Of a stretch of DNA of 54,449 nt, positions 1 through 54,449 are shown in pieces. The position numbers and the translations under genes were made by a program. The stretch comes from Candidatus Moraniibacteriota bacterium. GTDB lineage: Bacteria > Patescibacteriota > Minisyncoccia > Moranbacterales > UBA1568. The DNA is taken from positions 1-54,449 of the forward strand of contig JBAXFX010000001.1 of assembly GCA_037139695.1 (NCBI GenBank). The letters are read 5' to 3'. Numbering within the stretch: position 1 is the stretch's first letter; each line of letters begins with the position of its first letter. A model generated the notes under the pieces. That model was not told the origin of the DNA and ran no database searches. It saw nothing but the letters and a program-made list of their open reading frames with translations.

Positions 1-16
1 TTGGTTGGCGCTCAAA

Positions 17-68
17 CGAAATTTTCGGATTTACAGCTCGACATGAGATTTGAGAGAGATACTGAGAA
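17..68. repeat. Partial copy (one arm) of palindromic repeat family 2, truncated by the window start
   Basis: Hand alignment: 17..68 matches 31478..31529 ('cgaaattttcggattt[a/g]cagctcgacatgagatttgaga[g/t]agatact[g/t]aga') with 3 mismatches in about 50 nt. Both copies lie just 3' of a minus-strand gene stop. Confidence 0.8.
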
Positions 69-7654: not shown

Positions 7655-8749
7655 CTACTTTTCCGCTTCGCCGCGCAGTTCCTCGATAAGTTTCTTTTCT
7701 TTTCCTGAAAGCTTCTTCGGTATGTCTATCGTGACGGTCACGAGGTGATCGCCTTGGCCGTATCCCCGGACATTTTTCAGCCCCTTTCCCTTTATACGGA
7801 ATATTTCCCCAGGCTGGGTACCGGCAGGAATCTTCATATTCACAAAACCGTAGGCCGTTTCGACCTTCACGGTATCTCCGAGAACCGCCTGCGGGAAAGA
7901 AATGGCGAGCTTGGACAGGATGTTCTCCCCACGACGCGCAAACGACGGATGCGATTTCACATGGACATTGACATAGAGGTCTCCAGACTGTCCTCCCGGC
8001 TCACCGGCGGCACCCTTGCCGGAAACCGATATCACCTGCCCGTCGTCGATACCGGCGGGTATCCGAACGGTCACGTCCTCGTCTCCGGTCACACGACCCG
8101 CGCCATGGCACTTCGGGCAGTCCTCCGCGAAACGCTTTCCCTTGCCATGGCACTTCGGGCACGGTACGACCGTCGCGAACGTACCAAGCATGCTCCGAAC
8201 CGTCTGTCGGACCTGCCCGGCCCCGCCACATTCCGAACAGGTAGTTTCCTTCGACCCTCTCTTCCCTCCGGTGCCGTCGCAATCCGAACATACGATCGTC
8301 TTGCGCAACCGCATCGAGCGTTCCGTCCCGTTCACCATGTCCATGAAGGAAATCTCCACATCAACCTGAATATCGGATCCGGCCCGTGGCCCGCGTTGCC
8401 GACCACCCGAGAACCCTCCGCCGAACAGATCCGAAAAGACGTCCTCGAAACCACCGGCGCCACCGCCAAACTGAAAATCATTAAAATCAAAACCGCCGGC
8501 GCCGTTCCCACCGGAAAATCCACCAAAACCGGCCGGACCCTCGGCACTCCCATACTGGTCATATCGTTTCCGCTTTTCCGGATCGGACAGTGTGCCGTAT
8601 GCCTCGTTCGCTTCCTTGAACTTCGCCTCGTTGCCACCCTGCTTGTCCGGATGATGCTTGTGCGCGAGCTTTCGGAATGCCTTCTTGATATCGTCTTGGG
8701 ACGCGTCCTTGGATACGCCGAGTATCGCATAATAGTCCTTGTTTGCCAT
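7655..8749 (-). CDS. dnaJ: Molecular chaperone DnaJ (type I Hsp40)
   Basis: J domain '[32 protein letters not shown]', a G/F-rich linker and four CxxCxGxG zinc-finger repeats ([32 protein letters not shown]). Confidence 0.95.
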
Positions 8750-8805
8750 AGGTCATCGAATGTTTTGGAATCTGATCCCTCCCACTGTACCGCAAAACGA
8801 AAAGA

Positions 8806-8832
8806 TTAGCAATCCAATAAAGAGAGTGCTAA
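8806..8832 (-). promoter_or_regulatory. CIRCE operator (HrcA binding site) upstream of dnaJ
   Basis: TTAGCAATC-N9-GAGTGCTAA versus consensus TTAGCACTC-N9-GAGTGCTAA (1 mismatch). It lies 57-83 nt upstream of the dnaJ ATG. Confidence 0.8.
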
Positions 8833-8847
8833 TACTTCCATTTTTGT

Positions 8848-9153
8848 CACTGGTACCCGATTAGGTTGGTGAAAGTGCTTCTTTTAGGCTAGGATAAAGT
8901 CAGAATCGACGTTTTATATTTTATAAAGTAAAAATGCTTAATTCGCAGTCACAAATCCCCCTCGCTCCCCCTTCCCGAAAGGGGGAGACATATCTTTTTT
9001 CGCTTGTACTGTAATCGATATCTCCCTTTTGCAAAGGGAGTACCGAGTCTTCGAGGGGAGGGATTTGTGCTTGATCGGTCGAAGTCGGCATATCATTTTT
9101 TAGAATACGTCGAGTAAAATATCTTTAAGAAACTACCTAATCGGGAACTAGTG
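8848..9153. repeat. Nested palindromic element, about 306 nt (repeat family 1 arms enclosing a family-3-like module)
   Basis: Terminal arms 8848..8870 'cactggtacccgattaggttggt' and 9131..9153 (reverse complement 'cactagttcccgattaggtagtt') match at 19/23. An inner inverted repeat spans 8950..9069 ('cacaaatcccc...gggagggatttgtg') and encloses two CTCCC/GGGAG hairpins. The right arm recurs at 54398..54449. Confidence 0.8.
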
Positions 9154-9242
9154 CCCCATTTTTGACCCTGTGCAGTCTCATGGACCCGATTACGGAGCAG
9201 TCTTTTGACTCACTGCTGCTTCTACTTCTTCACTTTTCACTA

Positions 9243-10307
9243 TCAGAGTCCATTCTTTCCCTTGTTCACCACATGCTGATCGAAAGTCTCGGAAAAGACC
9301 GTCGCTCCGGTCGAGGGATTGTTCAGGAAGTACAGGTACGTGTTCGGCGTCGGGTTGAGGACGGCTTGGATCGAGGAGAGTCCCGGATTCGAAATCGGTC
9401 CCGGTGGCAACCCCTTGTTCACATACGTATTGTAAGGCGAAGCCACGGAAATATCGGCAAGGGAGTGCTTCACCTTGTTCACGCCAAGAATATACTGGAC
9501 AGTCGCATCGCTCTGAAGTGGCATCCCGACATCCATACGCCGACGGAAAATATCCGCGACGATCTTCCGATCCGCATCCGTCCGCACTTCCATCTCGACG
9601 ATACTCGCCAAGACGAGCGTATCGTACCGTTCCTTCCAAGATACGCCGACCAGGAGCGGTGTTGCCTTCGTGCCGAAACTATCGAGCATTTTTTCCAGGA
9701 TTGCGTCGCTTCCAAGCTTCGGATCGAAAAAGTACGTGTCGGGAAAGAGGAACCCCTCGAGCGTCGCACCGGCAGGGATATCGGCCAAGAAGGGGTACCG
9801 GCTCCGGAGCGCCGAATCCGGGCGCATGACTGCGGACAAAAATGCCGTTCCAGGCAATCCTGCCGCCGTAAGCCGGTCGGCCATATCGGCCGCGGTTATT
9901 CCCTCGGGAAACGTCACTTTGGTACCGGTTTCGAGAGTCTCGCCGTGGACAATTTTCGAGACGATATCCGGTATCGACATAGTCCCGCTCACGGCATAAT
10001 TCCCGGCCTGAAGTTTCGTCCGCAGGTGTTCCCGGAACAGATAGTAGAGGAACGGGAGCTCGGAACCGATAATCCCCTCCTTTCGAAGGTCCGCCGCGAA
10101 TGAAAGAGTGCCCTCACTTTCCCCAAGAGACACGGTAATCGTTTCCTGTCGGGTCCCGCGCGACGTTTTGACTCCGTTTTCCAATGCGAAATATCCCACC
10201 ACGAGCATGATGGCGAGGCCAAAAATAAAAAACGCGACCATTCGCATCAACACCGAAACTATCGGGCGCCCGAAGCGCCCTACCCGGCCTGACTCCTGTT
10301 GTTCCAT
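9243..10307 (-). CDS. mltG: Endolytic murein transglycosylase MltG (YceG family)
   Basis: N-terminal TM segment. YceG motifs 'VTFPEGIT', 'LVLASIVEMEV', 'LQSDATVQY' and 'SPYNTYVNKGLPPGPISNPG'. Confidence 0.9.
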   Translation of the reverse strand: MEQQESGRVGRFGRPIVSVLMRMVAFFIFGLAIMLVVGYFALENGVKTSRGTRQETITVSLGESEGTLSFAADLRKEGIIGSELPFLYYLFREHLRTKLQAGNYAVSGTMSIPDIVSKIVHGETLETGTKVTFPEGITAADMADRLTAAGLPGTAFLSAVMRPDSALRSRYPFLADIPAGATLEGFLFPDTYFFDPKLGSDAILEKMLDSFGTKATPLLVGVSWKERYDTLVLASIVEMEVRTDADRKIVADIFRRRMDVGMPLQSDATVQYILGVNKVKHSLADISVASPYNTYVNKGLPPGPISNPGLSSIQAVLNPTPNTYLYFLNNPSTGATVFSETFDQHVVNKGKNGL

Positions 10308-31335: not shown

Positions 31336-31529
31336 TCTTAGTATCTATCTCAAATCTCAACGCCTATATAAGGCAAAAAATCCGCTTGCCGGCTGAAATC
31401 CGAAAATTTCGGCTGCAAACCATTCAAAAATCGTCAGGTTACAATAGTAGCCCTCCTCATTTTTCATTGTTTTCGCGCGAAATTTTCGGATTTGCAGCTC
31501 GACATGAGATTTGAGATAGATACTTAGAG
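31336..31529. repeat. Repeat family 2: long imperfect palindromic element (about 190 nt)
   Basis: Left arm 'tcttagtatctatctcaaatctca' (31336..31359) plus 'gctgaaatccgaaaatttcg' (31392..31411) is the reverse complement of right arm 31478..31529. The right arm recurs at 17..68. Confidence 0.8.
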
Positions 31530-54125: not shown

Positions 54126-54397
54126 TACGACCAAGAATCCGATCGCCACAGAAAGCGACCATCGAACCGCGTCCTTAACTTTATACCACTCACAGAAGCT
54201 GATTACGCGTTTTATTGTGTCCTGTCTTCCTGCCCGTATTGCCATGCCTGTCCATACCGCTACGTCAGCCCGGCCGGCCTGATGGCAGTCATGGCGACGG
54301 GCGAAACGTTACGGGCTGAAAAAGCGTTGCTCGCCCGAATCACTTCGTAAAACGTCGCAGGCAGGCAGGTGCGAGGGAATGAATATACCTATTCAGG

Positions 54398-54449
54398 CAC
54401 CGGTTCCCGATGAGGTGGTTTCTTAAAGATATCTTACTCGACATATTCT
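54398..54449. repeat. Repeat family 1 arm, truncated by the window end
   Basis: 46/52 nt identical (hand count) to the reverse complement of 9102..9153. Confidence 0.85.

Follow-up and report, generated by a model that had tools for sequence, protein, structure and literature searches.

The palindromic element at positions 8846–9155 of the window (the whole 54,449-nt stretch analysed, contig C1 of a Candidatus Moraniibacteriota genome of 1.2 Mb, 106 contigs and 53% G+C, here G000) is very probably a MITE whose family descends from an IS256/Mutator-type insertion sequence (IS) of Candidatus Moranbacteria and relies on it for mobilisation in trans. The element is 310 bp long and is bounded by 23-bp terminal inverted repeats (TIRs), GTCACTGGTACCCGATTAGGTTG at 8846–8868 (+ strand) and, at 9133–9155 (− strand), a right repeat whose reverse complement is GGCACTAGTTCCCGATTAGGTAG (family consensus GGCACTGGTTCCCGATGAGGTGG); they run GG/GT...CC and match each other at 19 of 23 positions. 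Both ends are directly abutted by a perfect 8-bp direct repeat, CCATTTTT, at 8838–8845 and identically at 9156–9163, which represents the target-site duplication (TSD). A preliminary description of this DNA had given the element as 8848–9153, which recognised a real element but missed two outer bases on each side, and its figure of 19/23 for the terminal inverted arms is that of the TIRs. The right end of a second copy (TIR and right arm) lies inverted at 54396–54449 (+ strand), where it is cut off by the contig end. The 46/52 identity described earlier between 9102–9153 and the reverse complement of 54398–54449 was recovered, and becomes 48/54 for 9102–9155 against 54396–54449 once the outer CC is included.

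Within these boundaries, the left arm (8846–8940, + strand) comprises the TIR and a 5′ leader and is homologous to the first ~90 nt of the autonomous IS, while the right arm (9070–9132, + strand) is MITE-specific and is lacking from the IS interior. The inner 120-nt palindrome at 8950–9069 is present as previously outlined, with perfect 10-nt outer arms (CACAAATCCC and GGGATTTGTG), and represents a 48-nt two-hairpin unit doubled in inverted orientation; the right half of the palindrome occupies 9021–9069. The two CTCCC...GGGAG hairpins noted earlier were located at 8965–8987 (H1, CTCCCCCTT-CCCGA-AAGGGGGAG, + strand, kept in 10/10 aligned copies) and at 9022–9040 (H2, CTCCCTTT-TGC-AAAGGGAG, + strand, from folding and copy alignment). 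Single-strand folding of the element gave −104 kcal/mol for the + strand (z = −5.5 relative to dinucleotide shuffles) and −95 kcal/mol for the − strand (z = −5.4), and its palindromic structure therefore exceeds chance. The element was correctly described as lacking coding capacity, as its reading frames reach just 52–56 aa and none is conserved. An Rfam scan of 8600–9400 at permissive thresholds, a check that had been proposed, gave no matching family and only chance-level scores (best E = 1.4–9.7, 11–19 bits, for families with gathering scores of 42–90 bits).

The element belongs to a dispersed family, as had been supposed from its second copy arm. It matches 63 places in G000 (56 by script BLAST), and a search with the consensus GGCACTGGTTCCCGATGAGGTGG identified 34 TIR ends with ≤4 mismatches, which are of two types (~16 left and 19–21 right ends); the right arm alone gave 21 matches, and the MITE is present at about 20 sites. 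Copies range from 309 to ~390 bp and form three length classes, of 309–310 bp (the form in the window), 329–334 bp (with an additional 34-nt hairpin) and ~390 bp (with the 34-nt hairpin and a 66-nt two-hairpin module). The copy at C33:1825–2134 has an inner 306 nt identical to that of the window copy, and the sole difference across the full 310 bp is base 2 of the left TIR (T at C1, G at C33), suggesting recent transposition despite the absence of a transposase gene from the assembly. The TIRs of the C2 copy are perfect, and TIR variants co-vary between the left and right ends of each copy (GGTTCCCGAT, GGTAGTCGAT and GGTAGGAGAT), as anticipated where recognition of both ends by a protein is required. 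All 31 scorable MITE ends in G000 fall outside crude gene calls, against a coding share of ~84% for the genome. Many ends lie ≤200 nt from a contig end, that of the window included, indicating that the family helps to fragment the G000 assembly. Further copies were found in G003, G005 and several metagenomes. Matches to a 21-mer of the TIR in Myxococcota and Prevotellaceae genomes were discarded, as they lacked the arm sequences and their number fits our estimate of about two chance matches in 596 Gb. The interval C2:7027–9165, in which a left end and a full MITE stand 1.8 kb apart, was considered as an autonomous copy and rejected, its ORFs of 125 and 245 aa being unlike a transposase.

Duplicated targets accompany many of these copies, in agreement with the genome-wide copy and TSD check that the preliminary description had suggested. 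Perfect 8-bp TSDs flank four of the seven complete copies in G000 (C1, CCATTTTT; C33, CAACTTTC; C29, CAATTTCT; C34, CGAAAGTC) and a fifth, at C64, has a TSD matching at 7/8 positions, while a matching TSD was looked for and not found at the complete copies C2 and C25a. A scan of metagenome contigs with the TIR retrieved 56 loci and 28 TIR-bounded elements, 17 of which have perfect 8-bp TSDs and ~8 of which have no matching TSD; recombination between copies may explain the absent TSDs. The 8-nt targets are 76% A+T compared with 47% for the genome (53 non-redundant ends), with a roughly palindromic pattern, TT-nAAWWTYn, and the window TSD fits this AT-rich preference. Five MITE ends in G000 adjoin one 12-mer, TGCTTATAAAGA (C18:18325–18336, C25:65–76, C35:182–193, C49:12–23 and C58:180–191), which is part of another repeat, ...TCTTTATAAGCATCCTTCATATTCCAACCCCTCCTGTCCTCCCCTTAGGATAAGGGGAGAGAACGT; this repeat either holds a preferred target or travels with the MITE as a composite.

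An autonomous IS with the same TIRs as the MITE was found in the sister genome G005 (CAITOC01 bin-413) at L035:328–1597 (1,270 bp), and copies of 1,266–1,270 bp are hosted by two sister genomes (G005 and G001) and five metagenome contigs. The copies in G001, L095 and L131, like the one on L035, have MITE-type TIRs, the ~90-nt left end and the 8-bp TSD; that of G001, at 84% identity, carries its own co-varying TIRs, GGCACTGGTAGGAGATCAGGTGG, at both ends, and the 1,266-bp metagenome copy on L095 is flanked by a perfect 8-bp TSD, TCAAAGTC. When the full IS was compared with G000 by BLAST, its positions 1–93 matched the left arms of the MITE copies (C1:8848–8934 aligns to IS positions 5–92 at 75% identity), and at its right end just the terminal ~26 nt matched MITE ends. 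The sequence common to IS and MITE is thus the TIRs and ~90 nt of the left end, a stretch that precedes the transposase start as its leader, and nothing further. The IS interior gave 0 blastn matches in the G000 assembly, and no IS transposase was detected there by tblastn with E up to 10, so the case for mobilisation in the lineage of G000 rests on the sister genomes. The IS leader also contains a hairpin followed by a T7 run (L035:380–402 in G005 and L080:57–80 in G001), AGCAC-AGATTC-GTGCT-TTTTTTT in the former and AGCGC-AGAAAC-GCGCT-TTTTTTT in the latter, with compensatory stem changes; this putative terminator, which has decayed in the left arm of the MITE, may shield the transposase gene from outside transcription.

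The single long frame of the L035 copy encodes a zinc ribbon (CxxC...CxxC) together with a DDE domain. It scores 47.7 bits with the Pfam model Transposase_mut (PF00872), for which the cut-off is 21, has IS256 (NF033543) as its best NCBIfam match (E = 2.5e-20; 72.7 bits, below the cut-off of 150), and can be aligned with the transposase of ISCth4 (6xg8) over the D, D and NTxExxN motifs. On these profile and motif matches the transposase is of the IS256/Mutator type, and its score below the NCBIfam cut-off makes the parent IS a divergent relative at the superfamily level. In three IS copies (L035:433–460 in G005, L080 in G001 and L057 in G005 C73), a single ATG is present, with CCC AAA AAA A after it, and the zinc-ribbon/DDE frame lies one base off this ATG across the A7 run, without a canonical start. 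To express the transposase, ribosomes would have to slip by −1 on A-AAA-AAG, or transcriptional slippage would have to add one A.

The parent IS and its MITE resemble IS256 and ISCth4 in their 23–26-bp TIRs starting with GG, in the 8-bp TSD, in the ~1.27-kb length of the IS and in the transposase matches to Transposase_mut and to the ISCth4 motifs. They differ in that the window element has no transposase, and in that the transposase of the parent is divergent, with a weak similarity to ISCth4, an IS1/IS1595-like N-terminal zinc ribbon and an ATG out of frame across A7. The TIR GGCACTGGTTCCCGATGAGGTGG also lacks TGTAAA, a motif reported at a subterminal position in IS256 members (PMC7780238). 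Members of the IS256 family generate TSDs of 8–9 bp (PMC3189936) and transpose by a copy-out/paste-in mechanism (PMC7780238). By analogy with that family, we infer that the IS transposase, with its N-terminal zinc ribbon and DDE catalytic core, would bind the TIRs common to MITE and IS and would move the MITE in trans by copy-out/paste-in into AT-rich TTnAAWWTYn sites, with 8 bp duplicated. The interior of the MITE is not derived from the IS, and its nested palindrome is produced by the doublet of the 48-nt unit. At this locus the MITE inserted into the interval separating dnaJ from the YceG gene, at a distance of 13 nt on the upstream side of CIRCE. The window element is accordingly a genuine MITE, as the MITE-like non-autonomous element of the preliminary description had anticipated; its family, with TIRs, 8-bp TSDs, many copies and a parent IS with the same ends, is new but of a familiar type, and the element is ordinary selfish DNA.

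The inner palindrome has a dispersal of its own. The 48-nt unit consists of TCTCCCTTTnnnAAAGGGAG-TACCGAGTCTTCGAGGGGAGGGATTTGTG, and the left half of the window doublet is a shorter variant of it. Doublets without MITE arms occur at C21:4463–4581 and C9:6067–6186, and solo units at ~10 further sites in G000. The unit is also common in the congeners G001, G006, G007 and G008, all four without MITE arms, indicating that it is more widespread than the MITE and probably older. The inner palindrome is thus a separate, independently dispersed repeat that is carried in the MITE and stands outside the symmetry of the MITE itself. On C27, an inverted pair of units (1633–1688 and 2091–2136) brackets a 118-aa gene matching Pfam DUF559 (E = 2.4e-34). 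Three small DUF559 (Vsr-like endonuclease) genes are present in G000, each adjoining short two-hairpin repeat units (C27:1633–2136, with the inverted pair around the gene; C28:9016–9419; C51:3012–3564), an arrangement that looks like a minimal mobile cassette whose ends spread alone too. A variable point inside the unit, between ...GTCTTCGAG and GGGAGGGATT, is empty in the window copy, is occupied by the 66-nt module in ~12 copies and holds an unrelated ~33-nt hairpin in G003; the solo unit at C60 has half of the 66-nt module at this point. These observations would fit a three-layer nest, in which an IS256-type MITE carries a doublet of a DUF559-endonuclease-associated repeat family with an internal insertion hot spot, although we regard this extended scheme as speculative and rather unlikely. 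If true, it would imply an undescribed hairpin-targeted insertion mechanism in CPR, possibly driven by DUF559, which acts inside other transposons without the usual transposon footprints. A 56-nt 'queA' repeat of similar style was compared with the inner unit and is a separate family, as none of its 37 BLAST matches coincides with the unit.

The MITE lies upstream of a solitary dnaJ (7655–8749, − strand; Pfam DnaJ, DnaJ_CXXCXGXG and DnaJ_C), its left end being 96 nt upstream of the dnaJ ATG, and the stop codon of a YceG/MltG-family gene (9243–10307, − strand; PF02618, E = 1.4e-70) is 87 nt beyond its right end. The CIRCE operator of dnaJ, TTAGCAATC-N9-GAGTGCTAA (8806–8832, − strand), is outside the element and invariant in nine congeneric genomes; the preliminary description was right that the element abuts it, at a distance of 13 nt. 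A candidate dnaJ core promoter was identified at 8784–8812 (− strand), with a −35 TTGCTA (8812–8807) that lies within the proximal arm of CIRCE, followed by a spacer of 17 nt and a −10 TACAGT (8789–8784). It scores 8/12, with the threshold of the consensus scan being 9/12, and the pattern TTGC(T/C)A-17-TAnnnT is kept in 9/9 genomes. Comparison of the dnaJ upstream region in relatives, another of the checks proposed at the outset, showed that conservation in a nine-genome alignment begins exactly at the distal CIRCE arm and runs through GGATTGCTAATCTTTTCGTTTTGCGGTACAGTG, with nothing conserved upstream of CIRCE. We interpret this block as the probable dnaJ core promoter with its −35 inside CIRCE, an arrangement in which, across the genus, CIRCE appears at or upstream of the −35 instead of downstream of the promoter.

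As the MITE is ~33 nt upstream of the candidate −35 and the conserved block is wholly downstream of the insertion, the dnaJ operator and promoter, and with them dnaJ control, are probably intact, and the overlap with the dnaJ promoter region proposed earlier probably does not exist. All eight congeners have dnaJ and CIRCE and none has the MITE upstream of dnaJ; G003 retains YceG–dnaJ synteny with an intergenic gap of ~145 nt. Two independent assemblies with an identical DnaJ both carry the MITE, and in both the contig breaks inside the element; no empty-site allele was found among assemblies encoding identical DnaJ. We found no sign of a role for the MITE in dnaJ control, and the copy at this locus is most likely without function.

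An exapted regulatory insertion, in which dnaJ control is provided or altered by the MITE, for instance by way of an outward promoter, a terminator against YceG read-through or a changed geometry of the HrcA operator, is nevertheless suggested by the short distance to CIRCE and by the strong folding of both strands, although we consider it improbable. IS256-family ends can form hybrid promoters (PMC7780238), and the T at base 2 of the left TIR, a G-to-T change that recurs at the dnaJ-locus copy in two further, independent assemblies, makes GTGACA at the junction. However, GTGACA has no −10 at a spacing of 16–18 nt and gave no scan match, so a hybrid or outward promoter at this end was rejected, and no junction-promoter halves were recognisable in the Moranbacteria IS and MITE ends. 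The consensus scan also returned no promoter for either strand of the element and just one weak terminator-like hairpin (+ strand), which is antisense to dnaJ. The nine-genome conserved sequence, with the −35/−10 candidate, is wholly downstream of the insertion, and other MITE copies adjoin unrelated genes. A bias of left ends towards gene starts was noted in G000, where 12/15 face the 5′ end of a gene, but it is absent from the sister genomes (6/12) and the idea was dropped.

Still less probable is a structured ncRNA gene family, that is, a discrete RNA with functional nested hairpins for which mobility is secondary. The fold z of ~−5.5, the retention of hairpins across copies with 8 pairs showing compensatory changes and the origin of the left arm from the leader/promoter side of the IS would all suit such an RNA. 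Most of the compensatory pairs, however, are in the TIRs, where they are expected from transposase binding, or in an optional hairpin, H0; the interior is modular, with its optional 34-nt and 66-nt modules, unlike a constrained RNA; Rfam offers no match; and the TSDs and the IS partner fully account for the dispersal. Least credible, to the point of being nearly negligible, is the reading of the element as a REPIN/REP repeat moved by a RAYT, or as a degenerate, internally deleted IS copy and not a true MITE family, which is already contradicted for the outer element. The REPIN, a REP doublet mobilised by a RAYT transposase, is resembled by the inner 120-nt core, in which a short palindromic unit, also found singly, is doubled in inverted orientation, and G000 encodes two Y1 (RAYT-like) proteins. 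REP and REPIN sequences, however, are not known to generate TSDs or to carry 23-bp DDE-type TIRs, both of which the outer element has; the 48-nt unit brackets a DUF559 gene, not a RAYT; and RAYT was rejected as a mobiliser of the inner doublet, as both Y1 genes are tied to other palindromes (GGAGCTAAGCTCC... and AAGGTTGGACCTT...), by which they are flanked and interrupted. A single deletion product of the IS is at odds with a MITE interior unlike the IS coding region and with the lack of IS interior matches in G000, and the ~20 copies, which fall into three length classes, point to a family that propagates. The MITE derived from an IS256/Mutator-type IS remains the reading that we favour. The two Y1 genes themselves are found at C31:6426–7576 and C40:1447–2288 (open frames of 267 and 247 aa); their flanking palindromes are GGAGCTAAGCTCCTGTATACAGGAGCTTAGCTCC (~16 copies) and AAGGTTGGACCTTGGGTCTCAAGGTCCAACCTT (~7 copies), and each gene carries its own repeat copy in frame within the coding sequence.

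Among other known short repeats, pneumococcal BOX and Neisseria Correia/NEMIS elements are short, non-coding, multi-copy and intergenic, contain varying numbers of hairpin modules, frequently lie close to promoters and can fold as RNA. The window family is likewise short and intergenic with modular hairpins, but differs in having an identified parent IS and an 8-bp TSD. Correia elements duplicate TA, and we know of no transposase for them; nor, to our knowledge, has any TIR, TSD or parent IS been defined for BOX elements. A Cardinium MITE is reported to proliferate in a genome that is small, rich in repeats and also host to IS256-family elements (PMC9769881), which resembles the spread of the window family in a small genome; its sequences and host phylum are unrelated, and the passages on it do not link the MITE to IS256.

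Transposon biology in CPR has been little described, and a search of the full-text literature for CPR and MITEs combined found nothing related. The family described here shows that active spread of repeats is tolerable even for a very small genome, as long as insertions stay within AT-rich intergenic sites, and provides a defined set of TIRs, TSDs and transposase that is now usable for annotating Moranbacteria genomes. For annotators, it carries the caution that the element adjoining CIRCE appears not to be part of heat-shock regulation, and it points to the DUF559-associated hairpin repeat riding inside the MITE.

A second and far more abundant MITE family was also observed in the genome, with ends GTATCTATCTCAAATCTCA, a length of ~180–240 bp and flanking TTA/TAA (TNA) triplets. 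Its ~160 ends correspond to roughly 80 copies in 1.2 Mb, two of which are in the window (1–62 and 31341–31523). About 50 nt of this family is present at a large share of contig ends, which makes it the main cause of assembly fragmentation, and the two MITE families together account for the 106-contig assembly of a 1.2-Mb genome. The families also overlap directly, as the second-family copy at C34:7513–7718 is inserted into the left arm of an IS256-type MITE.
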